This document shows positions 7,397 to 30,483 of a stretch of DNA of 64,000 bases, piece after piece (position 1 is the stretch's first letter; every line of letters begins with the position of its first letter). A program made the translations under genes and the position numbers. Source of the DNA: Mycobacteriales bacterium (lineage in GTDB: Bacteria > Actinomycetota > Actinomycetes > JAFAQI01); NCBI GenBank assembly GCA_036267875.1, contig DATAVE010000160.1, forward strand, positions 5,420 through 69,419. Direction: 5' to 3'. The notes below the pieces were generated by a model. It saw only the letters and a program-made list of their open reading frames with translations. It searched no databases and was not told the DNA's origin.

Positions 7397-8914
7397 GTGG
7401 AGCTGAGACAGCGCCCGTCCCGTCGCGGTGGCCTCGCGGTCGCGGCGCTGTCCATCGCGCTGCTTGCCGGCTGTGGCAGCACCGTCGAGCCGTCGGCTGA
7501 GCGGACGATCGGCCCGATCCACGTCGGCATGGGTGCGCCGCCACAGGCCTCGACCACTCCGGTCACCGCTCCGTCTTCCGGCACGGCAGGCGGTCACCCG
7601 ACGTTGCCGTCCGTGACGTCGCCGGCTACGACCGGGGTGAGCACGGCTCCGGGTGTGACGACCACGCCCACCGGCACCCAGTCCACCCACGCGCCGGTGC
7701 AGACCGGGCCGATCACCGTCGGCTTCCTGACGACTGCGACGACGAACGCATCGCAGTACGGCGGATCGCTCGGCAATACGGTCAACGAGACGACGGTCGA
7801 CCAGGCGCTGATCAACGCGATCGACAAGCAGGGCGGTCTCGACGGCCGCCAGCTCAAGGTCATCTTCGCCCACACCGACACCGGCTCGACCAACTGGGAC
7901 AACGACTTCGAAGCGGCCTGCCAGACCTTCACCCAGGACCACCACGTCGATGTGGTGCTCGGCTACGAGTTCAACTACGAGCCCGACTTCGAGTCGTGTC
8001 TGGCCCAGCAGGGCATCCCGCACCTCGATGACGGCTTCAACGTCCCGAGCAGCGGCGAGCTCGCGAAGTACCCGCTGTTCTGGTCGCTGGATGTCCCGAC
8101 TATCGGACAGCGCTCGATCGAGAAGTTTCAGGGTGCGATCAACACGGGCTTTCTGACGTCCAAGAACAAGCTGGGGATTTTGCTCGACAGCTGCCCAGGC
8201 ACTCAGGATGCCTGGAACGGACAGGTGCTGCCGTTCCTGAAGTCCCACCACATCGACGTCGCCACGACCTTCACCGCTAGTTGCAACACCGGCAACAACG
8301 CAGGTGCGACCTCCGCAATCGGAAGCCTGACCAGTGGACTGCTGAAGTTCCGTAGTGCCGGGGTCGATCGCATCAGCTTCGTGGCGGTTTCCGAGGCACC
8401 GGTCCTCTACCTCGCGTCGGTCGCTGCGAACGCTCAGGGCTATCGGCCGGGCTGGATCGTCTCTTCGCTTGGTCAGCTGGCGATCATCGGTGGCGAGTCC
8501 CCGATGCCGCAAATGCAGAACACTCGCGGCTTCGGCTGGTTACCCAGCCAGGACGTTCCGCCCGCATACGCACCGAAGAAGAACGCAGCCCAGAGTCGCT
8601 GCATCTCGCTGCTCGCCTCGCAGAAGGTCTACCCGCGCTCGGCCGCTGACTACGGCTACGCCTACAACGCCTGCGAAGCCGTCTTCGTGTACGAGAAGGC
8701 ACTGAAGCTCGACGGCGGCAACTCCGATGGTCAGGCGATCAGCAACGCGATCGGAAATATCGGCAGCTTCCAGAGCACGTTGAACCTTGAAGGGAAGTCG
8801 GTGTTCTCGAGCGCTCGGCGCAACGACGCCCCGCAGGTCTACAAGCCGATCAACTGGGATGGCGGCTGTCACTGCTTCCGGTACGGCTCACAGACCTACC
8901 CGATGCCGTCGTGA
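7397..8914 (+). CDS. lipoprotein, LivK-like (type I periplasmic binding fold, HAAT family) substrate-binding protein A1
   Basis: Lipobox LLAGCGS, then a Thr/Pro-rich linker, then a PBP type-I domain (ITVGFLTTATTNASQYG...GGLDGRQLKVIFAHTDTG). C-terminal CHCFRYGSQ motif. Confidence 0.8.
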   Translation: MELRQRPSRRGGLAVAALSIALLAGCGSTVEPSAERTIGPIHVGMGAPPQASTTPVTAPSSGTAGGHPTLPSVTSPATTGVSTAPGVTTTPTGTQSTHAPVQTGPITVGFLTTATTNASQYGGSLGNTVNETTVDQALINAIDKQGGLDGRQLKVIFAHTDTGSTNWDNDFEAACQTFTQDHHVDVVLGYEFNYEPDFESCLAQQGIPHLDDGFNVPSSGELAKYPLFWSLDVPTIGQRSIEKFQGAINTGFLTSKNKLGILLDSCPGTQDAWNGQVLPFLKSHHIDVATTFTASCNTGNNAGATSAIGSLTSGLLKFRSAGVDRISFVAVSEAPVLYLASVAANAQGYRPGWIVSSLGQLAIIGGESPMPQMQNTRGFGWLPSQDVPPAYAPKKNAAQSRCISLLASQKVYPRSAADYGYAYNACEAVFVYEKALKLDGGNSDGQAISNAIGNIGSFQSTLNLEGKSVFSSARRNDAPQVYKPINWDGGCHCFRYGSQTYPMPS

Positions 8915-10485
8915 TGCGCACACGGTTGGTGTCGGCGACCGCGCTGGCGGCTGTCGCAGTTTTGGCCGGCTGCGGCAGCAGCGTCTCGTCGTCGCAGGCG
9001 ACGATCGGTCCCCTCAACGAAAGCCTCGGCGTACCTGGGTTCACAGTCGCGCCCGGAACGCCTGGTGCACCCATTGCAACGAGCCCCGCCACCGGCACGA
9101 CGGGGCCAGCGACGCCGACACAGTCCGCGTCACGTGGTCACGGCGCGACGTCGATCCCCACGTCCGTCGCATCGACCACAGAGATCCAGCCCAGCCAGTC
9201 TCTAGGTGGCGGTGCCACCTCGACTGCGCCGACACCGACCGGCGGGAGGACAACCTCGACGCCGGTGAAGGCGACCGGCCCGATCACGGTTGGCTTCCTT
9301 ACGACGGCGACAACCAACGCTGCTCAGTACGGCGCGTCGAACGGGAACACGGTCTCCGAGACCGGCATCGATGACGCGCTCGTCAATGCGCTCAACAAGC
9401 AGGGCGGGATCGACGGCCGGCAGCTCAAGGTCGTCTTCGCGCACACCGACACAGGCGGCAGCGACTGGGCGGGTGAGTTCCAGGCGGCCTGTTCGACGTT
9501 CACCCAGGACAACCACGTGGACGCGGTGCTGGGCTACGCGTTCGACTACGCGCCTGCGTTCGAGTCCTGCCTGGCCCAGAAGGGCATCCCGCACATCTCC
9601 GACTCCTACGCCGTCACGAGCCAAGCGGAGATGGCGAAGTATCCGCTGTACTGGTCGCTCGACACGCCGCCGATCGAGCAGCGCGAGATGGCGAAGTACG
9701 AGGGTGCCATCAAGACGGGCGTCCTTACACCCGCGAACAAGCTCGGCGTGATTCTCGACACCTGCGCGGGCAACCAGGCGGCATGGCAAGGCACGGTCCT
9801 GCCGTTCCTGCAGGCGCACCACATCAACGTTGCTCCGCCGTTCACCATTGCGTGTGGCACCGGCCAGAACGCCGGCATCGTCGCAACCGTCGGCTCGCTG
9901 ACGAACGTGTTGCTGCGGTTTCGTAGCGAGGGCGTCAACCGGATCAGCTTCGAGACGGCGGAGGGCCCGGCGCTGTTGCTCAGCAGCATCGAGGCGCAGA
10001 CGCAGGGCTATCACCCCGACTGGATCGTTTCCTCGCTCGCGGGACTTGCAGTGATCGGCGGCGAGACGCCGATCCCGCAGATGCAGAAGACCTACGGCTT
10101 CGGCTGGATACCGAGTGAAGACGTACCTCCGCAGTACGCGCCAGCCAAAGACGCGGCGCAGCTCCGGTGCCTCTCGTTGCTGCACTCGCAGAAGGAGTAT
10201 CCGAAGGCTGCTGCCGACTTCGTCTACGCCTACGACGCGTGCGAGGCGGTCTTCGTCTACGCCGATGCCCTCACGCACGACGGCGGAGACACGACCGGCA
10301 CGGCGGTGAGCCAGGCGATCGCATCGCTGGGCACGTCCTTCCAGAGCACGCTTAACCTCGGCGGCAAGTCGGACTTCTCGGCAGCGAGGCACAACGACGC
10401 TCCGATGGTCTACAAGCCGATCAACTGGGACGGCGACTGCCACTGCTTCCGCTATGGCTCGCAGACCTTCAAGATGCCGAGCTAG
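8911..10485 (+). CDS. lipoprotein, LivK-like substrate-binding protein A2 (tandem paralog)
   Basis: ATGA overlap with the upstream gene. Lipobox LAGCGSS, Thr/Pro linker, same PBP domain. C-terminal INWDGDCHCFRYGSQTFKMPS. Confidence 0.8.
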   Translation: MMRTRLVSATALAAVAVLAGCGSSVSSSQATIGPLNESLGVPGFTVAPGTPGAPIATSPATGTTGPATPTQSASRGHGATSIPTSVASTTEIQPSQSLGGGATSTAPTPTGGRTTSTPVKATGPITVGFLTTATTNAAQYGASNGNTVSETGIDDALVNALNKQGGIDGRQLKVVFAHTDTGGSDWAGEFQAACSTFTQDNHVDAVLGYAFDYAPAFESCLAQKGIPHISDSYAVTSQAEMAKYPLYWSLDTPPIEQREMAKYEGAIKTGVLTPANKLGVILDTCAGNQAAWQGTVLPFLQAHHINVAPPFTIACGTGQNAGIVATVGSLTNVLLRFRSEGVNRISFETAEGPALLLSSIEAQTQGYHPDWIVSSLAGLAVIGGETPIPQMQKTYGFGWIPSEDVPPQYAPAKDAAQLRCLSLLHSQKEYPKAAADFVYAYDACEAVFVYADALTHDGGDTTGTAVSQAIASLGTSFQSTLNLGGKSDFSAARHNDAPMVYKPINWDGDCHCFRYGSQTFKMPS

Positions 10486-10497
10486 GGGGACCGATAC

Positions 10498-11475
10498 ATG
10501 CCACGCAGCTACGGGGACCCGGACAAGCGAGGCCTGCCGCGGCACATGCGTCTCCTGTTCGGCGCGACCGAGGTGGCCCAGCGGTTCCACCTGGCTCCGT
10601 CCATGGAAGACGTGATCACCAAGCAGTCGCATGCGCAACGCCAGGTCGGCCACCCGGGATGGTGGATGACCTACCGGATCAACCCATCGGTCTCGACGTA
10701 CGAGGTCGCGATCGACAGCCGTGGCGGGCCGCTCGAGCTGCGGATCTACCGGCCGAGCAACGCCGGGCCTGAAGCGCCGATCGTCCTTTACATCCACGGC
10801 GGTGGATTCATGCTCGGCGGGCTCGAGGCGTGCGCCTGGATCTGCGGCGAGATCGCCGCGCAGACCGGCGCGGTGCTCGCCGCGGTCGAGTACCGGCTGG
10901 CTCCGGAGCACCCCTTCCCGGCCGGCCTCGACGACTGCCGCGACGCACTCGACTGGCTGGCGAAGGGGTCGCTGAGCGGCACCGATGCGAACCGCATCGC
11001 GGTTGCCGGTGACAGCGCGGGAGGCAACCTCAGCGCCGCGTTGTGCTTGGAGGCCCGGGACAGCGGCGGTCCGGCGATCGTCCACCAGACGCTGATCTAC
11101 CCGACGCTCGACTCGTCGCTGCGTGGCCAGTCGTGGGTTGACTGCGCAGGCGCCGGCGTCGACCGATCGGCCGGCGAGCAGATGTTCGAGGCGTACGCCG
11201 GTGCGGATCGAGAGAACCCGCTGGTGAGTCCGCTGCACTCGACCGATCTGTCCAACCTGCCGCCGGCGTTCATCGTCAACTCCGACTACGACGTGCTGCG
11301 CGACGACGGTTTTATGTACGCCGAGGCATTGCGTGCAGCGGGCGTCGAGGTGAGGCGCACCAACTACATCCGGGCACCCCACGGACTGCTGTCGATGCCC
11401 CGGCTTTTGCCGGTCGCCCGCCAGATGATCGCCGAGATCACCGGCGAGATCTCCCGCTACCTGCCGGTCGCCTGA
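10498..11475 (+). CDS. alpha/beta hydrolase, HSL-family esterase/lipase
   Basis: HGGGF oxyanion motif (LYIHGGGFMLGG) and GDSAGG nucleophile elbow. Confidence 0.8.
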   Translation: MPRSYGDPDKRGLPRHMRLLFGATEVAQRFHLAPSMEDVITKQSHAQRQVGHPGWWMTYRINPSVSTYEVAIDSRGGPLELRIYRPSNAGPEAPIVLYIHGGGFMLGGLEACAWICGEIAAQTGAVLAAVEYRLAPEHPFPAGLDDCRDALDWLAKGSLSGTDANRIAVAGDSAGGNLSAALCLEARDSGGPAIVHQTLIYPTLDSSLRGQSWVDCAGAGVDRSAGEQMFEAYAGADRENPLVSPLHSTDLSNLPPAFIVNSDYDVLRDDGFMYAEALRAAGVEVRRTNYIRAPHGLLSMPRLLPVARQMIAEITGEISRYLPVA

Positions 11476-11479
11476 ACCT

Positions 11480-12019
11480 ATGCAGCAGCGACGCGCCTTG
11501 CTTGCCCTGGCAGCGGGAGTGTCGCTTGCCCTGGGCGCGACGGGCTGCGCCACGAGCCTGCACGGCCTGGAGTTCCACAACGACAACCGGATGAAGATCG
11601 CCTCGCCGCATCAGAACCAGCTGGTGAGCGACCCCGTCACCCTGAGCTGGACCATGAAGGACTTCGCGGTTGCAGGTCTGGGCGATGGCCCAGTGCAGAA
11701 CGACACCGGATACTTCGCGGTCTTCATCGACCGCGCGCCGGTCAAGCCTGGGCAGACCCTTGCTTCCGTGAGCGAGAACACCCCGTCCTGCCAGCACACG
11801 ACGCTGTGTACGACGAAGTCGTATCTCGCCGGTGAGCAGGTCTACACGACAACCAAGGACGAAATCCGCCTCCCGCCGATCGCCGATCTGCTGAACAACC
11901 ACGAGTCCACGCAGTACCACCAGGCGACGGTGATCTTGATCAACACAGCAGGAGAGCGGATTAGCGAGAGTGCCTGGACGGTGGAGTTCCGGATGCACTC
12001 TTCCGGAGTGAACGACTGA
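11480..12019 (+). CDS. conserved lipoprotein of unknown function (paralog of 23525-24058)
   Basis: Lipobox LGATGCATS. The shared motif LSWTMKDF and its position immediately upstream of the MFS-LivF gene hold in both locus copies. Confidence 0.6.
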   Translation: MQQRRALLALAAGVSLALGATGCATSLHGLEFHNDNRMKIASPHQNQLVSDPVTLSWTMKDFAVAGLGDGPVQNDTGYFAVFIDRAPVKPGQTLASVSENTPSCQHTTLCTTKSYLAGEQVYTTTKDEIRLPPIADLLNNHESTQYHQATVILINTAGERISESAWTVEFRMHSSGVND

Positions 12020-14235
12020 TGGCCGCACGCAAGCAAGCCCCAGCGTCGGCGGCTGCCGCCGCGGATCGGGCTGCGGCGGAGATCGAGCAGACGAAGTCGA
12101 CGCTTCGCGAGCAGGCGCGCAGGACGCTGGGTGTCACAGGCGAGGACAGCACCGAAGCATTCAGGTTGCTGTTGCGGCGCAACCGCTTGTCGGTCTATCC
12201 GATCTTCGCCCTCGGGATGCTCTTCATCTGCGACGGTTTCCAGGGAACCGCGCTGGTCATCCTGTCGCCCAACGTCGCGGCCGCGCTGGGACTCGGCATT
12301 ACCGGGATCGGCGCGGCGCGGTCGATTGGGGCGTTTGCTGCGCTGGCATCGCCGATGCCGATGGCCGCACTGACTCAGCACAAGGCCCGACGGGCGGTGC
12401 TCTGTGTGATCACCGGGATCGCGTGGAGCTTCACGACGCTGTTCACCGGCTTCATCGTCTCCTCGCTCGGCCTGTTCGTGATCCTGGTCCTCGACGGGCT
12501 GAGCACGGGCACGGTGCTGGCACTGCATCCGCCGCTGATCATGGACAGCTACCACCCCTCGATGCGGGCGCGCGCCCTGTCGGCGTACTACGCGCTCGGT
12601 CAGTTCGGTGGCTTGGTCTGTCCGTTGCTCGTCGCGCTGCTGGCGGGCCCACTCAACCTCACCTGGCGTGGCGTCTTCCTCGTCCTCGGCCTCACCTCGC
12701 TGGCGATGTCGCTGCTGGCGGTGTTCCTGCGCGACCCGGGCTTCGGCAAGTGGGACACCGAGAAGCTCCGCGACAGTGTTCATGCCTCACACGGCGAGGG
12801 TGATCAGCTCGCCAAGGACGAGGTCGCGCTCGGCTTCTGGGAGATCGTGCGACGGGTCATGATGATCCCGACGATCAAACGCATCATGGCCTGCGCGGTC
12901 GTCCTCGGGATGTTGCTCATCCCGTTCCAGACCTACATCTCGTTCTTTCTGCTGCAGCGGTGGAACATGGACGCGAGCCACCGTGCGCTGTTCTTCGCCT
13001 ATGCCTCCGGCCTGACCATCATCGCGCTGATGATCTACGGCAGGATCGGAGAGCGGCAGTTCCGACGTACGCCGGCTCAGGTGCTTCGCGTGACGGCTTA
13101 CCTGCAGCTTGCGGGAATCGCCCTGCTGTTGTTCGGTGGGCTGTCGCCTTGGTTCGGCGGGATGCTCGCCGGCTTCGGGCTTGGCTCAGCCGTCGTCTAC
13201 ATCCTGTTTCCGGCAGTCACCCTCACGATCCTGTCGGTCGTTCCGGCGCACATGCGGGCGCACACCCAGTCGGTGTTCACGATCTTCGTCGGCTTGGGCA
13301 GTCTGCTCGGCGCGCTGCTGCTCGGCAACGTCGACGACCAGTACGGACCGACGGTGGCGATCGTCGTGATCGCTGCGGTGGGCTTCTTCGGAGCGGGACT
13401 GCTGGTGAGCGCCGCGAAGTTCGTCGTCGGGGACCTAGATCGGATGATCGACGACATCCTGGAAGAAGAGGAGATCAAGCGGATCACCGCCGCCGGCACT
13501 CACCTGCCGATGCTCGCGTGCCGCGGCATCGACTTCTCCTACGGCCAGCTCCAGGTCCTCTTCGGCGTCGACTTCACCGTCGACGACGGCGAGATGGTCG
13601 CGCTGCTCGGCACCAACGGCGCCGGCAAGTCGACGCTGTTGAAGGTCGTCTCCGGCATCGGAATCCCGAGCAAGGGCAGCGTCCGGTATCGCGGCCAGGA
13701 GATCACCTATCTCGATGCCGAGCGCCGACTTCGCCTCGGCATCACGCAGATCCCGGGCGGCCGCGCGGTGTTCGGACCGATGACGGTCCTGGAGAACCTG
13801 CGCAGCTACGGCTACAGCCTCGATGTCTCCCGGCGCGAGCTCAACCAGGCGATCGACTCCTGCTTCGAGGCATTCCCTCGGCTCCATGAGCGGCGGACGT
13901 CGCTTGCCGCCACGCTGTCCGGCGGCGAGCAGCAGATGCTCGGCCTGTCCAAGGCGTTGATGGTCAAGCCGAAGCTACTGGTCATCGACGAGCTCAGTCT
14001 CGGCCTGGCGCCGGTCATCGTCGGGCAGCTGCTCGAGATGGTGAAGCAGATCAACGCGGCAGGCACCGCCGTCGTGCTGGTCGAGCAGTCCGTGAACATC
14101 GCACTGAATCTCGTCGAGCACGCCTACTTCATGGAGAAGGGCGAGATGCGCTTCGACGGCAAGGCCGCCGACCTGCTCGCCCGTGACGATCTGCTGCGCG
14201 CAGTCTTCCTGCAAGGTGCGTCGGTGGCCGGATGA
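12019..14235 (+). CDS. fusion protein: N-terminal 12-TM MFS-like membrane domain plus C-terminal LivF-type ABC ATPase
   Basis: The first 470 aa show a 6+6 TM pattern with a central cytoplasmic loop. The C-terminus has Walker A GTNGAGKST, signature LSGGEQQMLGLSKAL and Walker B LLVIDELSLGLAP as in LivF. TGATG overlap with the upstream gene. Confidence 0.8.
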   Translation: MAARKQAPASAAAAADRAAAEIEQTKSTLREQARRTLGVTGEDSTEAFRLLLRRNRLSVYPIFALGMLFICDGFQGTALVILSPNVAAALGLGITGIGAARSIGAFAALASPMPMAALTQHKARRAVLCVITGIAWSFTTLFTGFIVSSLGLFVILVLDGLSTGTVLALHPPLIMDSYHPSMRARALSAYYALGQFGGLVCPLLVALLAGPLNLTWRGVFLVLGLTSLAMSLLAVFLRDPGFGKWDTEKLRDSVHASHGEGDQLAKDEVALGFWEIVRRVMMIPTIKRIMACAVVLGMLLIPFQTYISFFLLQRWNMDASHRALFFAYASGLTIIALMIYGRIGERQFRRTPAQVLRVTAYLQLAGIALLLFGGLSPWFGGMLAGFGLGSAVVYILFPAVTLTILSVVPAHMRAHTQSVFTIFVGLGSLLGALLLGNVDDQYGPTVAIVVIAAVGFFGAGLLVSAAKFVVGDLDRMIDDILEEEEIKRITAAGTHLPMLACRGIDFSYGQLQVLFGVDFTVDDGEMVALLGTNGAGKSTLLKVVSGIGIPSKGSVRYRGQEITYLDAERRLRLGITQIPGGRAVFGPMTVLENLRSYGYSLDVSRRELNQAIDSCFEAFPRLHERRTSLAATLSGGEQQMLGLSKALMVKPKLLVIDELSLGLAPVIVGQLLEMVKQINAAGTAVVLVEQSVNIALNLVEHAYFMEKGEMRFDGKAADLLARDDLLRAVFLQGASVAG

Positions 14236-17132
14236 AGTGGGGCCGCTGGGCGATCCGGGTCGCTGCGTTCGCTGCTGCGATTGCGGTGGCGAAGCTCGTG
14301 TTGGTCGAGTTGCACAAGCACGGACACCTCCAGACGTCCGCGACTCCGATGCAGGTCATCGTGCTGGGCGCGATGACCGGCATGACGTACGGGTTGCTCG
14401 GTGTTGGCCTGGTGCTGGTCTACCGAAGCAGCCGTGTCATCAACTTTGCGCACGGGAACATCGGCGCGTTCGGCGCCGCGCTGTTCGGTGTGATCGCCGT
14501 GAAGTGGCATGTGCCGTACTGGATTGCGTTCGTCCTGGCGATGGCGGTCTCGGGACTGGTCGGCGTCGGCACCGAGGCAGCAGCGGTACGCCGGCTTCGC
14601 AACGCGCCGTTGCTGATGAGCGTCGTCGTGACGCTCGGCATCGGGCAGTTCCTGGTCTTCTTCTCCCTCGTCATCAACTCGACGGCGGGTGCCGGCGCGA
14701 CGTACCCGAGCCCGCCGTTCATGCCTACGTTCCACGTGCAGTCGCTCTTCGTGACGCAGGCGTACTCGGGGATGCTGATCCTGTCGCCGATCGTCGTGGT
14801 CGGGCTGGCGGTCTTCCTGCGGGTGAGCAAGTTCGGGCTCGGGCTGCGTGCGGCGGCGGCCAACCAGGAAGCCGCGCGGATGGCCGGCATCTTTGCCGGC
14901 CGGATGTCGTCCCTCGCGTGGGCGATCGCCGGCGCGCTGTCGGCGTTCACAGCGATCCTCATCGCTCCGGCAGAGGGTTTCGTCAGCGGTGACTCGTTCG
15001 GGCCCGACCTGATCCTGCGGGCGATGACCGCGGCCGCGATTGGTCGGATGGACAACCTTCCGATCACGTTCTTCGCGGGTATCGGGCTTGGCGTCGTCGA
15101 GAACGTCCTGCTCTGGGACACCAGCAACTCAGACCTCGTCCAGATGGTGCTGTTCGTCGTCGTCCTCGGCGTGCTGCTGCTGCAGCGGCGGCGTGGCGGC
15201 AGAGGCGAGGAGAAGAGCAACTGGGCCTCGGTCCAGGCGCTGCGGCCACTGCCGGAGCAGCTTCGACGCCTGCCGTCGGTGCGGCTGCTCGGCCCTTTGG
15301 TCATGGTTGTCTTCTTCGGTGTGCTGGCGCTGGCGCCGCTCGCGATCGACAACAGTGGCTCGGTCACCCTCATCTACTTCATCGCGGTTGCGGTCGTCGG
15401 CTTGTCGATCAGCCTGCTGACCGGGCTCGGCGGTCAGCTCACGCTGGGACAGTTCATGGTTGCGGCGGTAGGCGCCGTCGTGTCCTTCCAGGTGTCCAGC
15501 CGGATCGGCGACTTCCCGCTGGCGCTGTTGTACGCCGGACTCGCCGCGGGCGTCGTATCGGTGCTGATCGGATTGCCGGCACTTCGGCTCCGCGGGCTGA
15601 TGCTGACGATCACGACGCTCGCATTCGCGCTCGCCGGGCCGTGGCTGCTCAGCAGGTCGTTTGCCTTGGGTGACGGGGTCAACCCCGGTGCGCCCATTGT
15701 CGATGGCCATCCGCTCGACAACGGCCACAACTACTACTACTTCGCGCTGGCCGTGTTCTTCATCTGCTTTGTCATCGCCTCGAACGTACGTCGCAGTGGT
15801 TTCGGCCGACTACTGATCGCGGTTCGCGACAACGAAGACAATGCCCGTGCGTTCGCGATCCGCGCGACGACCGCGAAGATGCAGGGCTATCTCATTGCCG
15901 GCTTCATCGCCGGCGTCGGCGGCGCGATCTACGCGCATTCGCGTACCGAGATCGACGGCTCGATCTTCGCGAGCAGGACGTCGATCGACGTTGTCGTCAT
16001 GTCGGTGCTGGGCGGCATCTCTTCGCTGGCCGGCCCGATCATCGGGTGCGCCTGGATCATCGGCATCCCCAAGATCCCGAATCTCGGCAACCTCGGGCTC
16101 GCGGCGACGTACTTCGGTGCCACGGCGATGATCCTTTGGCGACCGAACGGCCTCATCAGCTTCGTCGAGGCGCCGCGGCGCATCGTTGTCACCGCGCTCG
16201 CGCGGCTTCACGGCATCGACGGCAAGGCTGCGTTCGCCGACCAACGATCGGTCGCGGTCGTGGCGTCGACCGCCGTCGCAGCTGCCGCGATTCCCGCTCG
16301 TCCGGCCGCACCCGTCCCGCCGCAACGGCTTGCGGTGCGCCCGACGATCCTCGAGGCCCGCAGTCTGATGAAGCGCTTCGGCGGGGTGACGGCGGTCAAC
16401 GACGTGTCGTTCTCGGTCCTTGCTGGTGAGACGCTCGGTCTGATCGGCCCGAATGGCGCCGGCAAGACCACAACCTTCGAGCTGCTCGGAGGCTTCACCA
16501 AGCCCGACCGCGGATCGGTCACCTTCGAGCGGCGCGACGTGTCACACCTCGGGCCCGAGGGACGGGCGCGGCTCGGACTGATCCGATCGTTCCAGGACGC
16601 CGCGCTGTTCCCGACGATGACCGTCGAGGAGACCGTGGTTCTGGCTCAGGAGCGGATCAGCGGTACGTCGTTCATCGGGTCCGTGCTCGCCATCTCAGGT
16701 CGTAGCGAGCGGGCCAAGAAGGCGCGTGCTCGCGAGCTGATCGCGATGCTCGGCCTCGACGCCTATCGGGATCGACAGATCCGCGAACTGTCGACCGGCA
16801 CCAGGCGGATCAGCGAGATCGCGTGTCTGGTCGCACTCGAGCCGACCTGCCTACTGCTCGACGAGCCGTCCTCCGGCATCGCCCAACGCGAGACCGAGGC
16901 CCTCGGCGTTCTGCTCGACGATCTCAAGCGTCAGCTCGACCTGACACTGGTCGTGATCGAGCACGACATTCCACTGATCATGGGAATCTCCGACCGGATC
17001 GTCGCGATGGCCGACGGTGCCGTCATCGCCGAGGGGACGCCGGACGTCGTGCGCAACAACGCGATGGTGATCGACGCATACCTCGGCGGCAGCATCACCG
17101 CGATCGAGCGATCGGGGGTAGGTCGTGCGTAG
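14232..17132 (+). CDS. triple fusion LivH-like permease, LivM-like permease, LivG-like ABC ATPase (HAAT family)
   Basis: 966 aa. The N-terminus has LivH motifs (INFAHGNIGAFGA). The middle is a LivM-like 8-10 TM block, followed by an Ala/Pro linker. The C-terminal ATPase has [16 protein letters not shown] and LLLDEP. ATGA overlap with the upstream gene. Confidence 0.8.
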   Translation: MKWGRWAIRVAAFAAAIAVAKLVLVELHKHGHLQTSATPMQVIVLGAMTGMTYGLLGVGLVLVYRSSRVINFAHGNIGAFGAALFGVIAVKWHVPYWIAFVLAMAVSGLVGVGTEAAAVRRLRNAPLLMSVVVTLGIGQFLVFFSLVINSTAGAGATYPSPPFMPTFHVQSLFVTQAYSGMLILSPIVVVGLAVFLRVSKFGLGLRAAAANQEAARMAGIFAGRMSSLAWAIAGALSAFTAILIAPAEGFVSGDSFGPDLILRAMTAAAIGRMDNLPITFFAGIGLGVVENVLLWDTSNSDLVQMVLFVVVLGVLLLQRRRGGRGEEKSNWASVQALRPLPEQLRRLPSVRLLGPLVMVVFFGVLALAPLAIDNSGSVTLIYFIAVAVVGLSISLLTGLGGQLTLGQFMVAAVGAVVSFQVSSRIGDFPLALLYAGLAAGVVSVLIGLPALRLRGLMLTITTLAFALAGPWLLSRSFALGDGVNPGAPIVDGHPLDNGHNYYYFALAVFFICFVIASNVRRSGFGRLLIAVRDNEDNARAFAIRATTAKMQGYLIAGFIAGVGGAIYAHSRTEIDGSIFASRTSIDVVVMSVLGGISSLAGPIIGCAWIIGIPKIPNLGNLGLAATYFGATAMILWRPNGLISFVEAPRRIVVTALARLHGIDGKAAFADQRSVAVVASTAVAAAAIPARPAAPVPPQRLAVRPTILEARSLMKRFGGVTAVNDVSFSVLAGETLGLIGPNGAGKTTTFELLGGFTKPDRGSVTFERRDVSHLGPEGRARLGLIRSFQDAALFPTMTVEETVVLAQERISGTSFIGSVLAISGRSERAKKARARELIAMLGLDAYRDRQIRELSTGTRRISEIACLVALEPTCLLLDEPSSGIAQRETEALGVLLDDLKRQLDLTLVVIEHDIPLIMGISDRIVAMADGAVIAEGTPDVVRNNAMVIDAYLGGSITAIERSGVGRA

Positions 17133-18147: not shown

Positions 18148-18469
18148 TCTAGGTACTGAGCGTCGGCAGCCGTGGCTGCGAGCGATCACCGATCCGGCAT
18201 CGACCCTGCCCGTCTACCTGGGCGTGGTGGTCGCGGCTGTCGGGTTCGTGCTGCTCGTCATCGGCTGGTCCGACGTCGCGGGGACGGTCGACGTCGGACG
18301 GCAGATGCCGTACCTGATGTCGACCGGACTGCCGGGCATCGCGCTGGTGATGGTCGGACTGGTTGTGGTGAACATCAGCATTCGGCGTCAGGACAGCGCC
18401 GAGCGCGCCCGGCAGATGAGCGCGCTGACCGAGACGCTCGACAAGCTGCGGGCGTCGGACTCGAAGTGA
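18140..18469 (+). CDS. small 2-TM membrane protein (GW-motif family), member 1
   Basis: 109 aa with two hydrophobic helices (VVAAVGFVLLVIGWS; LPGIALVMVGLVVV) followed by an RRQD charged tail. 8-nt overlap with the upstream gene. Paralogous to 19161-19448. Confidence 0.5.
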   Translation: MADLGTERRQPWLRAITDPASTLPVYLGVVVAAVGFVLLVIGWSDVAGTVDVGRQMPYLMSTGLPGIALVMVGLVVVNISIRRQDSAERARQMSALTETLDKLRASDSK

Positions 18470-19164: not shown

Positions 19165-19448
19165 CGACTCTCGATCGAGGACCGGAGGTCGTGCAGCGCG
19201 TCGGTCAGGGCCGCCATCTCGCGCGAACGCTTGGCGCCGTCCTGTCGGCGGGCGGCGACGTTGATGACGACCAACCCGACCATGACCAGTCCGATGCCGG
19301 GAAGGCCCGCGGACAGGACGTAGGGAACCTGCTGCCAGGAGTTGGGCTTGCCCGCGGCTTCTGACCAGCCGATGAGGATCAGCGCGAACCCGGCGAGGGC
19401 CAGCACGATGCCGACGTACGTCGGGATCCGGGACTCTGGCTCCGTCAT
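19161..19448 (-). CDS. small 2-TM membrane protein, member 1' (copy B)
   Basis: Start MTEPESRIPTYVGIVLALAGFALILIGWSE; its ATG overlaps the stop of the upstream gene. About 60% identical to 18140-18469. Confidence 0.5.
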   Translation of the reverse strand: MTEPESRIPTYVGIVLALAGFALILIGWSEAAGKPNSWQQVPYVLSAGLPGIGLVMVGLVVINVAARRQDGAKRSREMAALTDALHDLRSSIESR

Positions 19449-23462: not shown

Positions 23463-23477
23463 TGGTTGATAATCCCC

Positions 23478-23493
23478 CTGTAGCACTCTACAG
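23478..23493. promoter_or_regulatory. palindrome CTGTAG-N4-CTACAG in the divergent promoter region of copy B
   Basis: Perfect 6-bp arms in the 63-nt gap between divergent starts 23462 (-) and 23525 (+). Confidence 0.35.
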
Positions 23494-23524
23494 TCAAGGC
23501 TGACTGTAAGATGGGGAGCTGCGA

Positions 23525-24058
23525 ATGGTCCGGTTGCGGGGCGCTCTATGCGTCACGCTCGGGCTTGCGATCTTCGGACTGAGCGGCTGCGCAACCAGCC
23601 TTGCTGGCCTGGATTTCCGAACCGACAAACGGTTGTCGTTCATCGAGCCGCATAGTCGTGAGCAGGTCAAGCTGCCCGTGCACCTGGCATGGACCATGAA
23701 GGACTTCACCCCGGCCGCGCCCGGTTCCCAGCCACCGACCAAGACCGCGGGCTACTTCGCGATCTTCGTCGATCACACTGCGATCAAGCCGGGGCAGTCC
23801 ATGCGCGCGGTTGCTCACGGCGACTCGTTTTGCGAGTCCAATCCGAAGTGTCCGGATCGCGGCTATCTGGCGGAGCGACAGATCTATACGACGACCGCGA
23901 CGTCGTACGTGCTGCACAACGTGCTGCCGATCACGAACAACGACGAGCACGTCCAGCTGCACGCGGCGGTCATCGTGCTGATGGACACGGCGGGTAACCG
24001 CATCGGCGAGAGCTCATGGGAGATCGACTTCCGCACGGTCAACGAGAGTGACACGTGA
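23525..24058 (+). CDS. conserved lipoprotein of unknown function (copy B)
   Basis: Lipobox GLSGCATS and the shared motif LAWTMKDF. Paralog of 11480-12019. Confidence 0.6.
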   Translation: MVRLRGALCVTLGLAIFGLSGCATSLAGLDFRTDKRLSFIEPHSREQVKLPVHLAWTMKDFTPAAPGSQPPTKTAGYFAIFVDHTAIKPGQSMRAVAHGDSFCESNPKCPDRGYLAERQIYTTTATSYVLHNVLPITNNDEHVQLHAAVIVLMDTAGNRIGESSWEIDFRTVNESDT

Positions 24059-26229
24059 GCGAGCTCACCACCGACGCGATGCGCGAGCGGGCGCGGGCAA
24101 CACTGGGCGTCTCGGGTGACGGTCACAAGGAGCGGTTTCGTGACGTCGTACGTCGTGAGCACCTGTCCTACTACCCGATCCTTGCGCTCGGGCTGCTGAG
24201 CGTCGCGGACAACTTCCAGGGCTACGCGTTCACCGTCCTGACTCCGGACATCAGCCGCACCCTCGGCCTGACGATCGGCGCGATCCTGGTCGGCGTCGCA
24301 CTCAAGGGATTCGCCACTGCGATCGCGCCGCTCCCGGTCGCCGCGCTGTCGCAGAACCGCGCTCGTCGCGCCTTGCTCTGCATCATCACCGGTCTGGCGT
24401 GGAGCATCCTCACCCTGACCAGCGGCTTCGTCATCTCGCTGGCCGGGCTGATCACGGTCCTTGTCCTCGACGGGTTGAGCACCGGCAGTGTCACGTCGTT
24501 GCACGCGCCGCTCGTGATGGACAACTACCCGCCCCCGATCAGAGTGCGCGCGATGTCGTCCTACGCCGCTTTCCAGCTGCTGGGCAGCGTGGCGTCGCCA
24601 CTGCTGGTCGGCCTGCTCGGCGGCATCGCCGGATTCACCTGGCGTGGGGTCTTCTTGATCCTCGGCGGGATGTCGGTGCTGATGACGGTCGCCGCTCTCG
24701 GCTTGCGTGACCCGGGCTTCGGCAAGTGGGACACCGACCAGCTCAAGGCGAGTGTCCGGGAGGAGACCGGCGCAACGGTTCCTGCGGCGCAGGCCGACGC
24801 GCTGTCGGCGCAGGACGTCGCGCTCGGCTTCTGGGAGATCTGCCGGCGGATGCTGCTCATCCCGACCAACCGTCGGCTCTACGCAGGCGCTGCAACCTTC
24901 GGGATGTTGAGCATCCCGCTCACCGCGTTCCTGTCTTACTTCCTCTCGCAGCGTTGGAACCTGGGCGCCGGACAGCGCGGGCTGTTCTTCGCCTTCTACT
25001 CGTTCACCGGCGTAGTCGCGATCCTGCTGTACGGCGGTCGCGGCGAGCGGCAGTACCGCGAGTCGCCGTCGAAGGTGCTGCGAGCCGGCGGCATCGCGCT
25101 CGCGATCGGCGTCGTACTCGCCGCGGTCGGTGCGGAGATGCCGGTGTTCGGCGCGATGCTCGCGATGTTCGGCCTTGCGGGCGCCTCGATCGCGGTGCTG
25201 CTGCCGCTCCTCTATATAGCGCTGCTGTCGATCGTCCCGGCGAACATGCGACCGCACGCTCAGGCCCTGGTCGCGATCTTCGTCGCGATCGGTGGACTGC
25301 TGGGTGCGCTGCTGCTCAGCGGATTTCAGAGCCAGTTCGGGCTGAAGGGTTCGCTCGTCGCGCTTGCGATCCCGGGCGTCATCGGGGCACTCATCGTGGC
25401 CAGCGCGGGGTCGTTGATCGAGGCCGACCTGGACCGGATGATCGACGCGGTCCTCGAAGAGGAGGAGATCCGGCAGCTGCGGGCAGCGGGCAGCCACCTG
25501 CCGATGCTCGCCTGCAAGGGCGTCGACTTCTCCTACGGTCAGCTGCAGGTGCTGTTCGGCGTCGACTTCACCATCGACGACGGCGAGATGGTCGCGCTGC
25601 TCGGGACCAACGGCGCGGGCAAGTCGACGCTGCTCAAGGTCATCTCGGGAATCGGGCTGCCGTCGGCAGGCAGCGTGCGATACCGAGGCGAGGAGATCAC
25701 CTACCTCGATGCGGAACGGCGGCTGCGACTCGGTATCACCCAGGTGCCCGGCGGACACGCGGTCTTCGGACCGCTGACCGTGATCGAGAACCTTCGCACC
25801 TACGGCTACTCGCTCGGCGCTGACCGCAAGCGCGTCGAGGCCGGGATCGACACCTGCCTGAATACCTTCCCGCGACTCGAGGACCGTCGAAACTCACTCG
25901 CCAGCACGTTGTCCGGTGGCGAGCAGCAGATGCTCGGACTGTCCAAGGCGCTGATGATCAAGCCCAAGCTGCTGCTCATCGACGAGCTGTCGCTCGGCCT
26001 TGCGCCGGTGATCGTTGGACAGCTCTTGGAGCTGGTCCGGCAGATCAACGCCGAGGGCACCGCAGTGGTGCTCGTCGAGCAGTCGGTCAACATCGCACTC
26101 AACCTTGCCCACCACGCGTACTTCATGGAGAAGGGCGAGGTTCGCTTCGACGGACGCAGCGCCGACCTGCTTGCCCGCGACGACCTGCTCCGTGCGGTCT
26201 TCCTGCAGGGCGCAGGAGCTCAGAAATGA
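24055..26229 (+). CDS. fusion protein: MFS-like 12-TM domain plus LivF-type ABC ATPase (copy B)
   Basis: Collinear with 12019-14235. ATPase motifs GTNGAGKST and LSGGEQQMLGLSKAL. GTGA overlap with the upstream gene. Confidence 0.8.
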   Translation: MSELTTDAMRERARATLGVSGDGHKERFRDVVRREHLSYYPILALGLLSVADNFQGYAFTVLTPDISRTLGLTIGAILVGVALKGFATAIAPLPVAALSQNRARRALLCIITGLAWSILTLTSGFVISLAGLITVLVLDGLSTGSVTSLHAPLVMDNYPPPIRVRAMSSYAAFQLLGSVASPLLVGLLGGIAGFTWRGVFLILGGMSVLMTVAALGLRDPGFGKWDTDQLKASVREETGATVPAAQADALSAQDVALGFWEICRRMLLIPTNRRLYAGAATFGMLSIPLTAFLSYFLSQRWNLGAGQRGLFFAFYSFTGVVAILLYGGRGERQYRESPSKVLRAGGIALAIGVVLAAVGAEMPVFGAMLAMFGLAGASIAVLLPLLYIALLSIVPANMRPHAQALVAIFVAIGGLLGALLLSGFQSQFGLKGSLVALAIPGVIGALIVASAGSLIEADLDRMIDAVLEEEEIRQLRAAGSHLPMLACKGVDFSYGQLQVLFGVDFTIDDGEMVALLGTNGAGKSTLLKVISGIGLPSAGSVRYRGEEITYLDAERRLRLGITQVPGGHAVFGPLTVIENLRTYGYSLGADRKRVEAGIDTCLNTFPRLEDRRNSLASTLSGGEQQMLGLSKALMIKPKLLLIDELSLGLAPVIVGQLLELVRQINAEGTAVVLVEQSVNIALNLAHHAYFMEKGEVRFDGRSADLLARDDLLRAVFLQGAGAQK

Positions 26230-26233
26230 CACG

Positions 26234-29146
26234 GTGCTCCAAGTGACGAGAAAGAACCTGCTCAGCATCGCGGTCGGCGCGGTCGTCGTCGTGCTGTTGA
26301 AGCTGATCAGCGCCGAGCTCGCCAGGCACGGCGTCATCCACGCGTCGACTCCCGGCACCGTGATCCTGCTCGGCACGATCATCGGGATGACCTATGGGCT
26401 GCTGGCCGTCGGTCTGGTCCTGATCTATCGGACCAACCGGATCATCAACTTCGCGCACGGCCAGATCGGCGCGTTCGCGGCGGCGTTCTTCGCGCTGTGC
26501 GCCGTGAAGTGGCACTTCCCGTACTGGGCTGCGTTCCCTGTGGCGCTCGTTGTGGCGGGGATGACCGGCGCCGCGGCCGAGACCGCCGTCGTACGCCGGC
26601 TACGCACTGCGCCTCGGGTCGTCAGCGTGGTGGCCACGCTCGGCGTCGGCCAGTTCCTGGTGATCTTCGGGCTGCTCATCAACCCGTCCTCGAGCGCGGG
26701 ATCGCTGTTCCCGCAGCCGTCGTTCCTGCCGACCTTCAACGTCGGCGCACTTCGGGTGACCCCGGCGTACTCCGGGATGCTCATGCTCTCGCCGGTACTC
26801 GTGCTGGCGATCGCGGTATTCCTCAAGCGCAGCAGGTTCGGCCTCGCGGTCCGGGCGGCTGCTGCCAACCCGGACGCGGCCCGGATGGCGGGCATCTTCG
26901 CCAGCCGAACCTCCTCACTCGCCTGGGCGATCGCCGCGGTCTTGTCTGCGTTCACCGCGATTCTGACCGCGCCGACTCAGGTCGTCTCCGGCGCCAGCAG
27001 CTTCGGGCCGTCGCTGTTGCTTCGGGCGCTCGCGCCCGCCGTGCTCGCCCGGATGCAGAACATCCCGCAGGCGCTCATCGGCGGCATCGGGCTGGGGATC
27101 CTCGAGCAGATCCTGTTCTGGAACTACCACTCGTCCGGGGTGGTGGAGATCGTGCTGTTCTTCATCATCCTTGGCGCCTTGCTCCTGCAAAAGCAGCGCG
27201 GCGGGCGAGACGAGGAGAAGGGCAGCTGGGCATCGGTGCAGGCGCTGCGGCCGTTGCCGGAGGCCTACCGGAAGGTTTTCGCGATCCGCCGACTCGGGCT
27301 GATCACAGGCGTCGTATTCATCGGCCTGATCGCGCTGGTTCCGCTGGTCGCGAGTAACAGCCAGACGAACACCTTCACGGGGATCATGGCGGCCGCGATC
27401 GTCGGGTTGTCGATCGGTCTGCTGACCGGACTCGGTGGCCAGCTGACGCTCGGGCAGTTCGCGATTGCCGCGGTCGGCGCCATCGTGTCGTTCCAGGTCT
27501 CCAGGAGGATCGGCGACTTCCCGCTGGCGCTGCTCTACGCCGCGATCGTCTCTGGTGTCGTGTCGGTGCTCATCGGGCTGCCTTCCTTGCGGATTCGCGG
27601 GCTCATGCTGACCGTGACGACGCTGTCATTCGGGCTGGCTGCTACCGACTGGGCGCTGATGCAGCCGTGGGCCTTTGGCGGCACGAGCCGCCCACCCGGC
27701 GCCCCGATCGTCTTCGGCCACTCGCTGACGACCGGCCACTCCTATTACTACTTCGCGCTTGCGATCTTCGTCATCGCACTGGTGGTCTGTCGAAACGTAC
27801 GTACTGGAGGCTTCGGCCGGCTCCTTGTCGCGGTGCGGGACAACGAGGACAACGCCCGTGCCTTCGGCATCACGGCGAGCCTCGTGAAGATGCAGGGATA
27901 CTTCCTTGCCGGCGCGATCGCCGGCATCGGAGGTGCTGCGTTCGGTCACGCGCACAGCTACCTCAGTCCCGACGTCTTTCCGTCGAGCACCAGCATCGAT
28001 GTCGTGGTCATGACCGTGCTGGGCGGAGTGTCGGTGCTCGGCGGCCCGATCATCGGCGCGATCTGGGTGATGGGCCTGCCGTTGCTCAACCTCGGCAACA
28101 TCGGCCTGGCCGGCACCCAGCTCGGCGCGTTGGCGCTGATCCTGTGGAAGCCGTCCGGTCTCGTGGGCCTGTTCGAACCGATCCGCCAACTGGTCATCCG
28201 CGCGATCGCCAAGCGGGCCGGCGTCTTCCTCGGCGAGACCGCACCAGTTGCTGACGTGCCGCCGCAAGAGGCGACGGTCGCGCACGTACGCGAGTGGTCG
28301 GTCGCCGGCTCCAAGCTGCCTCCGGTTGCGGGCGCACGGCTACTCGAGGCGCGAGGTCTGCAGAAGCGCTTCGGCGGCGTCGTCGCCGTGAACGATGTGT
28401 CCTTCATGGTGCGGGCCGGCGAGACTCTGGGATTGATCGGCCCGAACGGTGCCGGCAAGACGACGACGTTCGAGATGCTCGGCGGCTTCACGAAGCCTGA
28501 CCGAGGTCACGTGTTCTTCGATCACCGCGACATCTCCTCGCTCGGTCCGGAGCGCCGCGCGGACCTCGGGCTGATCCGGTCGTTCCAGGACGCGTCGTTG
28601 TTCCAGACGATGACGGTCAAGGAGACGGTGATGCTCGCGCTCGAGCGCACCTCACCGACTCGGTTTGCCGCGGCGTTCCTCGGCGTGACTCCGGGTGAGC
28701 GTCGCAAGGAGCAGCGTGCCCGCGAGCTGCTTGGCATGCTCGGACTGGACCGCTACCGCGACTTCCAGATCGGCCAGCTATCGACCGGTACGCGACGGAT
28801 CACCGAGATCGCCTGCCTCGTCGCGCTGCAGCCGTCCTGTCTGCTGCTCGACGAGCCGTCGTCAGGTGTTGCGCAACGCGAGACCGAGGCGCTCGGCGTG
28901 CTGCTGCAGGACCTCAAGGCCCAGCTTGGCCTCACCCTCGTGATCATCGAGCACGACATCCCGCTGGTCAGCGCGCTCTCGGACCGGATGATCGCCATGG
29001 CCGATGGCGCGATCATCGCCGAAGGAACTCCCGAGCAAGTGCAGTCCAACTCCCTGGTGATCGACGCCTACCTCGGCGGCAGCCTGACCGCGATCGAGCG
29101 GTCCGGCCCAGCCCGGCCCTCGCGCAGAAAGGCAGTGACCGTATGA
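26234..29146 (+). CDS. LivH-LivM-LivG triple fusion (copy B); GTG start assigned by alignment to copy A (26243 is an alternative)
   Basis: Collinear with 14232-17132 ([13 protein letters not shown]; GPNGAGKTT; LSTGTRR). The ORF is open further upstream, but homology begins at [11 protein letters not shown]. Confidence 0.75.
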
Positions 29147-30405
29147 CCGCTCCAGCCCTCCTCGAGGTCGACGGCTTCGTCGCAGCTGGCTTCGAGCCGG
29201 TCGCTGACGCGTTACGCGAAGCATCGGATCTGGGCGCCGGCGGCGCGGCGTTCGCGGCGTACGTCGACGGTCGGCTCGCGGTCGACATCCGGGCCGGATG
29301 GGCGCGACCGGGGCAGCCATGGCAGGACGACACCGTGATGCTGATCGCGTCGGTGACCAAGGGTCTCGCCGCGTTGTGCATCGAGCTGTTGAACGACCGC
29401 GGCCTGATCGACATGGACGAGAAGGTCACGACGTACTGGCCGGAGTACGGGCAGAACGGCAAGCAGGACACGACCGTCCGGATGATCCAGATGCATACCT
29501 GCGGTGTGATCGGCTTCCCGACCGTGCACCAGCTTCTCGCGTGGGATGGCACCGGCTGGGACGACCTCGCTGGCATCGCCGCGGGACTCGCCGCCGCCAA
29601 GCCCGCGTGGGAGCCGGGGACGCAGCACGGATACCACGCGGTGACGTACGGCTGGCTGGTCGGCGAGCTCGTCCGCCGGGTCACCGGAGGGATGACACTC
29701 GGGCAGTTCTTCGCAACGGAGTACGCCACTCCGCTCGGCGCCGACGTGCACATCGGCGCGACGCCGGACGTTCTCGCGCGGATGGCTCAGGTCTATGTCA
29801 GCAGCCCGGATGAGCTCAAGGGCCCGGAGAAGTTCGTGATGAATCTCGTGAGCAAGCGGCTACGCGGCAACACTCTCGCCGGGCAGGCGTTTCTGAGCGA
29901 CGGCAAGGCCTCGATCATGGACTCGATCGACAAGCTGCTGGAGAACGACAAGTTCTTGACCGCAGAGGTCCCGGCGAGCAACGGGCTGGCGACCGCTCGA
30001 GGTCTAGCGCGTTCATTCCAGGTTCTCGCCCAGGGCGGCGAGGTTGACGGTCACCGCTATCTGTCGGCTGAGTCGGTGCAGGAGTGGATCAAGCCGGCCG
30101 CACGTCGCGGCGACTACATCCTGAAGAAGTCGATCCCGTTCGCCGGCGTACTCGGGCTGGAGAAGAAGACGCTGCTGACCCGGACGCTTGGCTACGGGGC
30201 GAACGAACCGGCGCCGGGCGCCAAACCTGCATACGGCCCGACGCCCCAGACGGTTGCGGCGGAGGGCGCCGGCGGCCACATCATGTTCGCCGACCCGGTA
30301 CGCCGCGTGAGTGTCGGTTTCGTGCGCAGCCAGATGAGCGGCAAGCACAACACTTCAGACCCGCTCTTCGCCGCGCTCTACTCCTGCCTCGATTCCCCGA
30401 AGTAG
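29143..30405 (+). CDS. serine hydrolase, beta-lactamase/esterase family (paralog of 2801-4072)
   Basis: S-x-x-K motif SVTKG. N-terminus GFVAAGFEPVADALREASDLGAGGAAFAAYVDG parallels 2801-4072. ATGA overlap with LivHMG. Confidence 0.8.
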   Translation: MTAPALLEVDGFVAAGFEPVADALREASDLGAGGAAFAAYVDGRLAVDIRAGWARPGQPWQDDTVMLIASVTKGLAALCIELLNDRGLIDMDEKVTTYWPEYGQNGKQDTTVRMIQMHTCGVIGFPTVHQLLAWDGTGWDDLAGIAAGLAAAKPAWEPGTQHGYHAVTYGWLVGELVRRVTGGMTLGQFFATEYATPLGADVHIGATPDVLARMAQVYVSSPDELKGPEKFVMNLVSKRLRGNTLAGQAFLSDGKASIMDSIDKLLENDKFLTAEVPASNGLATARGLARSFQVLAQGGEVDGHRYLSAESVQEWIKPAARRGDYILKKSIPFAGVLGLEKKTLLTRTLGYGANEPAPGAKPAYGPTPQTVAAEGAGGHIMFADPVRRVSVGFVRSQMSGKHNTSDPLFAALYSCLDSPK

Positions 30406-30482: not shown

Positions 30483-30483
30483 A

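Follow-up and report, generated by a model that had tools for sequence, protein, structure and literature searches.

How do two related uptake loci come to lie tail to tail in one genome, and what might they do there? The question is raised by a 64,000-nt stretch of contig DATAVE010000160.1 from a Mycobacteriales bacterium, below called the window, in which copy A (7397-18741) and copy B (18796-30405) carry much the same set of genes. A sequence-only reading of this DNA had taken the two copies for an old inverted duplication, symmetric about 18.77 kb, that kept its gene order. We consider it probable that copies A and B are instead ancient paralogues of a conserved uptake cluster, made adjacent by an insertion, and that each encodes an unusually built ATP-binding cassette (ABC) importer of the LivHMGF type.

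The genes and junctions are listed below, with start codons revised against the sequence and independent gene calls. Letters denote gene families: S, binding protein; H, esterase of the A3 type; L, lipoprotein; M, a fusion of a major facilitator superfamily (MFS) domain with a LivF-type ATPase (MFS-LivF); P, a LivH-LivM-LivG fusion; R, Pro-rich anchored protein; a and b, small proteins with two transmembrane (TM) segments; E, esterase of beta-lactamase fold.

A1 (S), 7397-8914, plus strand: lipoprotein binding protein, divergent Peripla_BP_6 (LivK-like).
A2 (S), 8911-10485, plus strand: lipoprotein binding protein, in tandem with A1.
A3 (H), 10498-11475, plus strand: esterase of the hormone-sensitive-lipase family (PF07859, E 2.5e-62), in copy A only.
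A4 (L), 11480-12019, plus strand: conserved Ig/FN3-like lipoprotein, translationally coupled to A5.
A5 (M), 12019-14235, plus strand: MFS domain (about residues 56-470) and LivF-type ATPase (498-738); PF07690 and PF00005.
A6 (P), 14232-17132, plus strand: LivH and LivM permease domains and LivG-type ATPase; PF02653 (two stretches), PF00005 and PF12399.
A7 (R), 17125-18147, plus strand: signal peptide, jelly-roll ectodomain, Pro-rich stalk and C-terminal TM anchor.
A8a (a), 18140-18469, plus strand: small 2-TM protein with a cytoplasmic helix.
A8b (b), 18466-18741, plus strand: small 2-TM protein with a cytoplasmic helix.
Left junction, 18742-18798: 54-nt spacer and the flank-derived stop codon of B8b, including CCAGATCTGG at 18766-18775.
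B block, 18799-30392: unit of 11,594 bp, its ends set by blastn end points and boundary alignments.
B8b (b), 18796-19164, minus strand: small 2-TM protein of copy B.
B8a (a), 19161-19448, minus strand: small 2-TM protein of copy B.
B7 (R), 19445-20464, minus strand: Pro-rich anchored jelly-roll protein of copy B, with an ATGA overlap with the B2 stop.
B2 (S), 20461-21972, minus strand: lipoprotein binding protein of copy B.
B1 (S), 21969-23462, minus strand: lipoprotein binding protein of copy B, in tandem with B2.
B1/B4 divergent control region, 23463-23524: back-to-back promoter-like sites and two 16-nt palindromes.
B4 (L), 23525-24058, plus strand: Ig-like lipoprotein of copy B.
B5 (M), 24055-26229, plus strand: MFS-LivF fusion of copy B, assigned by Pfam.
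B6 (P), 26234-29146, plus strand: LivH-LivM-LivG fusion of copy B, assigned by Pfam.
B9 (E), 29143-30405, plus strand: cytoplasmic beta-lactamase-fold esterase (PF00144).
Right-junction hairpin, 30394-30483: two perfect arms of 23 nt with a loop of 44 nt, lying between B9 and a TetR gene that converges on it.

Part of the sequence-only reading stands. Its open reading frames (ORFs) are present where it placed them, and both copies have their two small 2-TM proteins, in a different frame from the longest ORFs; independent contigs give gene calls of 109 and 91 aa for the A8a/A8b region. Copy A is collinear and copy B has its binding-protein and accessory block divergent from its transporter block, with 54 nt (18742-18795) between the last stop codons of the two. 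Pairwise BLASTP supports every proposed pair, so that the two gene sets are indeed old paralogues of one multi-gene uptake system. The eight gene pairs that match between A and B are 26-62% identical in amino acids, a wider range than the 35-60% first estimated: 62% for A6/B6, 60% overall for A5/B5 (48% in the MFS domain and 82% in the nucleotide-binding domain), 55% for A8a/B8a, 41% for A4/B4, 39% for A7/B7 and 34% for A8b/B8b, with the binding proteins lowest (26-27%, E 1e-19 to 1e-25). Inside one copy, the binding proteins are 59% (A1/A2) and 67% (B1/B2) identical. The pairing of the beta-lactamase-like hydrolase B9 with its counterpart U1 at 2801-4072 also holds (50% identity, E 1e-120). 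Sharing of gene families between the copies is thus borne out for eight pairs but does not extend to the alpha/beta hydrolase A3, which has no partner in copy B.

What does the locus look like in relatives? Homologous loci and contigs from other genomes or metagenome assemblies are numbered L001, L002 and so on. L081-L083, which comprise two Mycobacteriales assemblies and one Logan contig, read TetR, AMP-binding enzyme, S, H, L, M, P, R, a and b; about 90 nt further on come minus-strand genes for TetR, acyl-CoA dehydrogenase, SDR, MaoC and thiolase, then a plus-strand esterase gene and an MCP gene. By blastn, these loci align with 4661-18733 and 30467-38530 of the window at 77-85% identity. 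L002 has the same arrangement, and these four relatives, which hold copy A and both flanks, have about 90-145 nt where the window has 11.7 kb. The right flank is colinear in L081, L002 and L001 at 81-85% nucleotide identity. Because the site is empty in colinear relatives, window positions 18742-30466 constitute an indel. The spacer between b and TetR appears to be a variable spot. At this spacer, L001 carries a different insert of 2.3 kb (16739-19012, minus strand) encoding a 757-aa secreted protein that looks beta-helix/IPT-like by eye.

The B block is found elsewhere, with other flanks, in L088. There the order is b, a, R, an S remnant and S on the minus strand, then L, M, P and E on the plus strand; homology with the window starts at 18799 and stops at 30392. 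In L088 a type-B carboxylesterase gene follows b, its start overlapping b in a translationally coupled arrangement; the window has no copy of this carboxylesterase. The b protein ends in KKPS in L088 and in KK in the window, where its stop codon comes from the flank. Similarly, E ends in CLD in L088 and in CLDSPK in the window, where the last three codons and the stop of B9 are supplied by an arm of the hairpin. The S remnant in L088 (2380-2811, minus strand) is what an internal deletion has left of the second binding-protein gene: a 143-aa ORF in which an N-terminal lipoprotein signal is joined to the C-terminal ~70 residues of a B2-like protein.

Neither copy is the nearest relative of the other; for both, closer ones occur in other genomes. 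A5 shares 75-86% identity with its orthologues (L001, L002, L081 and L084), and B5 shares 96% with the L088 protein and 68-72% with homologues elsewhere (Mycobacteriales metagenome-assembled genomes, or MAGs, Kribbella and Nonomuraea). In a neighbor-joining tree, A5 groups with L001 and L002, and B5 lies at the base of a different large clade. A composition-based case for a foreign origin of the B block found no support: G+C is 64-70% across the whole window, and the block has the same GC and GC3 as its flanks.

Does the DNA itself show the mirror symmetry that had been proposed? A sensitive blastn comparison of A with B gives a single long match, and this is direct (12350-17116 against 24326-29106, 70% over 4868 nt), covering the transporter core. 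The inverted matches are short and confined to the R, a and b genes (within 17640-18457 against 19946-19176), so the claimed symmetry about 18.77 kb does not hold. The palindrome CCAGATCTGG on the supposed axis does exist, but nothing sets it apart. The window contains 122 perfect palindromes of 10 nt, about one per 500 nt, and first-order Markov shuffles give 136 +/- 10; a 54-nt spacer would hold one or more with a probability of ~0.1. As a recombination or terminator signal it was rejected, given its shuffled-rate frequency, its absence from a sister species, and a pattern scan that detected no terminator-like site in the spacer. The sister species (L084 and L091, 99.7% identical where they overlap) has A and B adjacent as in the window, at 80% identity, with a 19-nt spacer that lacks the palindrome. 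Hence, the apparent symmetry and the palindrome on its axis are coincidental.

How, then, did B come to adjoin A? The simplest reading is one 11.6-kb insertion into the spacer between b and the hairpin, in a common ancestor of the window organism and the sister species. We infer this direction for the indel, which is not strictly proven. Duplication in place would require an 11-kb locus to have been mirror-copied beside itself and to have diverged, with the L-M-P genes of copy B later inverted again. Such an origin would suit the tail-to-tail copies 54 nt apart, the mirror order of R, a and b with their short inverted matches, and the families common to both copies. It is nevertheless very improbable, because the mirror order fails for S and L-M-P, the main DNA match is direct, the palindrome is unconserved and at chance level, each copy is nearer to relatives elsewhere, and the site is empty in four relatives when the B block stands in L088 between other flanks. 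An ancient adjacency of A and B, followed by precise deletion of B in the L001, L002 and L081 lineages and its relocation in the L088 organism, is a more serious contender that we still regard as unlikely. The adjacency is kept in two species 80-83% identical in DNA, the A-clade tree is unrooted, and the spacer is variable, with another insert in L001. However, this scenario needs at least two events, loss and relocation, instead of one. It also sits poorly with the end genes of B, which take their stop codons from the flanks in the window and in L088 are a coupled b and a shorter E with its own stop, and with the intact hairpin directly after b in relatives. Finally, an assembly that mis-joined two clusters across similar sequence might be suspected from the 70% DNA identity over 4.9 kb and from a source that looks metagenomic, but we give this practically no credence: the junction lies outside the similar regions and is crossed by contigs from three JGI samples (L085, L086 and L087) at 99.7-100% identity and by the sister contig L091 at 80%. 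The junction is real. Insertion of one paralogous cluster beside its relative is, as a structural event, ordinary; the lesson is that an inverted duplication should not be called from tail-to-tail paralogues until the empty site and the phylogeny have been checked.

The hairpin at the right junction has a folding energy of −67.5 kcal/mol (z −8.25) and is a candidate terminator-like element. An orthologous hairpin directly follows b of copy A in the empty-site genomes, with arms conserved in L079 and L081-L083. Across different actinobacterial genomes the arms, CGAAGTAGCACAC...GTGTGCTACTTCG, are conserved and the loops, of ~45-55 nt, are variable. The recurrences are in L081 (11608-11689 and 19121-19201), L079 (16182-16263), L082, L083, L089 and L090. 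All three copies whose gene context was read (that of the window and both in L081) lie between convergent genes. Rfam gave no family anywhere in the window, hairpin included, and the idea of an abundant dispersed element was dropped after an exact scan of the metagenome collection gave only two matches. At the left block boundary, a 9-nt match to the hairpin arm (18793-18802, one mismatch) may be due to chance, with ~1.9 such matches expected per window.

Between 17000 and 31500, only two sigma-70-like matches occur, back to back in the 62-nt spacer between B1 and B4. Overlapping these promoter-like sites of copy B, at 23479-23510, are the adjacent 16-nt palindromes CTGTAGCACTCTACAG and CAGTCAAGGCTGACTG, which are candidate operator sites. 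The B1 ATG at 23462 lies ~7 nt past the −10 hexamer, a distance at which the transcript may be leaderless. Within genes A4 to A8b, and within each B operon, neighboring genes overlap by 1-8 nt (typically at ATGA or GTGA) or are separated by 4-nt gaps.

How widespread is the cluster? A scan of one genome per species gave 80 loci with M relatives, spanning Mycobacteriales, Frankiales, Kribbella, Nonomuraea, Actinomadura, Haloechinothrix, Acidimicrobiia and Dormibacterota. Gene content was counted in the 50 loci whose M gene is flanked by 7 kb or more on each side: 48 contain L, 47 P, 43 S, 27 a or b, 19 R (always accompanied by a or b), 11 E and seven H. None of the 50 loci has a second M gene, and several MAGs have two cluster copies on separate contigs. 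The S, L-M-P and R-a-b modules differ in order and orientation between loci. Several B-clade loci have P and R set apart by a menC-like gene, making R-a-b a separate transcription unit there. This enolase-superfamily gene (menC/N-acylamino-acid-racemase-like by eye) is on the minus strand, at 15216-16322 in L006, 15465-16946 in L008 and 15203-16309 in L019. A search with the MFS domain returned 540 of 1.84 billion representatives at E <= 1e-3; among the best 150 matches, 66 reach 640 aa or more, and all but two of these (64) have a C-terminal Walker A motif. The MFS subfamily is therefore small and almost always fused. Thus, the cluster is widespread in soil Actinomycetota and conserved, not a local oddity. 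Public records label M generically, as “MFS transporter” or “ATP-binding protein,” and we found no description of MFS-LivF or HAAT fusions, or of the cluster, in the searchable literature.

What kind of transporter does the cluster encode? The closest comparison is with LIV-I of E. coli (LivJ/K-LivHMGF) and the HAAT family (TC 3.A.1.4), including UrtABCDE. The shared features are two BPD_transp_2 (PF02653) permease domains, a LivG-type ATPase with a BCA_ABC_TP_C motif, a LivF-type ATPase and a linked Peripla_BP_6-type binding protein. PF02653 matches A6 at E 5e-53 and B6 at E 1.5e-47, in two stretches each, PF12399 (the BCA_ABC_TP_C motif) is present in both, and Walker A, signature and Walker B motifs are readable in both copies. 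The best NCBIfam matches are LivF NF008626 for the A5 ATPase (E 3e-57) and LivG NF008449 for that of A6 (E 1.4e-63); these, like all LivF, LivG, UrtD and UrtE scores, are under the equivalog cut-offs. Against the PDB, the ATPase domain accounts for all of the best 60 matches of A6. The canonical five-polypeptide architecture of HAAT systems is not what is found: LivH, LivM and LivG form a single 966-aa chain, LivF lies behind a full MFS domain, the binding proteins are divergent lipoproteins, and an Ig-like lipoprotein and the R-a-b trio are added. The departure is one of architecture, not of fold; within a known family, this build is a variant so far undescribed.

The binding proteins had been called LivK-like, which holds only as remote homology: a profile of 39 members matches solved HAAT binding proteins in the PDB (4gnr, E 1.1e-8), and 26 of the 39 match PF13458 (best E 1.4e-15). 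The description is less secure for the four proteins of the window, none of which has a Pfam match above threshold (PF13458 reaches only E 0.002), and a PDB search with a single sequence returned noise only. Their lipoboxes read LLAGC and VLAGC in the copy-A tandem A1/A2, and LVAC and LAAC in the copy-B tandem B1/B2.

The membrane domain of M has the MFS fold: PF07690 matches A5 at E 7.6e-29 and B5 at E 5.9e-25, and residues 78-474 align with 49-442 of DgoT (6e9n) in a full-length but very weak match (E 1e-4). Across the 80 loci, which span orders and even phyla, the LivF-type ATPase of M is on average 79% and never less than 71% identical to that of A5, an unusual degree of conservation; for the fused MFS domain the average is 46%. 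Unlike DgoT-like anion:cation symporters, the family appears to have an invariant glutamine in place of the motif-A aspartate, and it has a family-specific DPGxGxxD loop and a near-constant ATPase fusion. Motif A of MFS carriers, located between TM2 and TM3, has the form G-x-x-x-D-R/K-x-G-R-R/K; at the position assigned to it by eye, A5 reads AALTQHKARR. Here Q120 would replace the aspartate, and Q120 and R125 are invariant in 80 sequences, as are D159, H170, D176, R183, R185, the DPGxGxxD loop, E275, R278 and R279, among others.

Neither the Ig-like lipoprotein nor the small membrane proteins have a match among Pfam or NCBIfam models. The small proteins a and b are mutual paralogues (23-29% identity, E 1e-4 to 6e-7) and so arose as a pair by an old tandem duplication. 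They share the motif P[YW]xxSxGLxG at the start of TM2 and match no Pfam family. Many loci have two a-like genes in place of a and b. The ectodomain of A7 has four conserved Cys, and A7 gave no match to Pfam or NCBIfam at E <= 0.01; sequence searches of the PDB with L and R profiles also gave none. R shares the fold of DNRLRE/CBM96 modules without matching their family model in sequence, and its identity to the chondroitin-sulfate-binding 8wab_B and to 7vbo_A is only 12%. Those proteins are modules of glycan-degrading enzymes, whereas R is a stand-alone protein, C-terminally anchored on a Pro-rich stalk. The 7vbo_A structure is an alginate-binding CBM96 module (PMC9971899).

What might the clusters import? 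The neighboring genes offer some clues, and are as follows; those from the TetR regulator onward were assigned by Pfam.

U1, 2801-4072, minus strand: cytoplasmic beta-lactamase-fold (LipL-like) esterase of the extended copy-A locus (PF00144, E 1e-48), paralogue of B9.
TetR regulator, 4084-4758, plus strand: syntenic in L081.
Acyl-CoA-synthetase-like AMP-binding enzyme, 4755-6299, plus strand: syntenic in L081.
LacI-family regulator, 6303-7298, minus strand: seen only in the window and in the sister species (L084).
TetR of the right flank, 30484-31083, minus strand.
Acyl-CoA dehydrogenase of the right flank, 31091-32335, minus strand.
SDR of the right flank, 32357-33244, minus strand.
MaoC hydratase of the right flank, 33264-34121, minus strand.
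Thiolase-like protein of the right flank, 34121-35317, minus strand.
Abhydrolase_3 esterase of the right flank, 36017-36937, plus strand.

L001 and L002 also have a U1 orthologue upstream of copy A. No signal peptide is present in the esterases A3, B9 and U1, and A3 matches NCBIfam LipP1 at E 5e-78, under the curated cut-off. Family members are thus accompanied by cytoplasmic esterases of three folds, an acyl-CoA-synthetase-like enzyme and beta-oxidation-type genes. This combination of esterases with acid-activating and beta-oxidation genes suggests esters or hydrophobic carboxylates as substrates. With binding proteins only ~26% identical between copies and cores ~60% identical, A and B probably import different but related compounds. 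Among known systems, CamABCD of Rhodococcus jostii RHA1 is another actinobacterial ABC importer encoded next to catabolic genes; it takes up cholate metabolites, which are hydrophobic acids (PMC8399759, PMC7593942). No Rhodococcus protein is among the best 120 homologues. The Cam system may itself be of the Liv type, with fused subunits.

How might the parts work together? The two lipid-anchored, highly divergent LivK-like binding proteins of each cluster would deliver substrate to the permease. The LivG domain of P would pair with the LivF domain of M, which would place the MFS domain beside the LivH/LivM permease; in such an assembly the LivG-LivF dimer would tether an extra 12-TM membrane domain to the permease. 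L, co-made with M, is probably located at the outer face of that protein. R, a and b could form a membrane complex at the envelope side, with the stalked jelly-roll domain reaching into the wall. A bolder version of the same idea is that the MFS-LivF hybrid is a carrier-type domain permanently docked to, and gated by, the ATPase dimer of an ABC importer, and that together with L and R-a-b it makes up an envelope-reaching uptake apparatus by which soil Actinomycetota would acquire hydrophobic esters or acids. We put this forward only as a speculation, with perhaps a slim chance of being right, and if true it would be a transporter architecture without a studied example. Knowing the substrate of the clusters, and what the MFS domain does, could show by what route ester-type or hydrophobic carbon sources enter soil actinobacteria, and work on MFS-LivF could show how primary and secondary transporter modules combine.

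Could the machine work in the opposite direction? In an exporter, or a device for handling envelope lipids, the MFS domain would transport and the ATPase would regulate. The fusion of an MFS domain from a small, divergent subfamily to an ATPase would be in keeping with this, as would the resemblance of R to polymer-binding modules and the glycosyltransferase genes elsewhere in the window. We nonetheless consider an exporter improbable. To our knowledge, transporters that combine LivH/LivM-type permeases, LivG/LivF ATPases and type I binding proteins (TC 3.A.1.4) act only as importers; a binding-protein gene is linked in 43 of the 50 loci, and the neighboring genes are catabolic. The case for an importer cluster brought in by insertion has its own weak points. 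No transposase or integrase gene was found in or beside the B block, and no target-site duplication marks it. L081 has nothing that corresponds to the 57 nt on its left. Should the window lineage branch outside L001, L002 and L081, parsimony would not favor one insertion over one deletion at that site. It is also conceivable that L088 is the rearranged form. On the functional side, no named homologue fixes substrate or transport direction; like the way the subunits assemble and the parts played by the MFS domain, L, R, a and b, the substrate class and the import direction are inferred, and the window's own binding proteins fall under the Pfam threshold. With what appears to be an invariant glutamine for the motif-A aspartate, the MFS domain may not work as a normal carrier. 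The tie of R-a-b to the transporter is one of gene linkage, and R is absent from 31 of the 50 loci.

The rest of the window holds genes that stand further from the two copies. Just beyond the esterase U1, at 2003-2731 on the minus strand, is a gene for a protein with DUF2786 and DUF7168 domains. A DUF222 and HNH endonuclease gene (38705-40291, minus strand) adjoins the MCP gene; L081 has a 360-aa gene with no Pfam match at this position, together with its second hairpin copy. At 53509-55719 and 57799-63906 are genes for a Castor/Pollux-type RCK channel protein, a GT2-GtrA glycosyltransferase, a PMT_2/YkcB-type mannosyltransferase and an ABC-2 exporter pair. Apart from the channel gene, this group at the window's far end has the look of envelope glycan genes.

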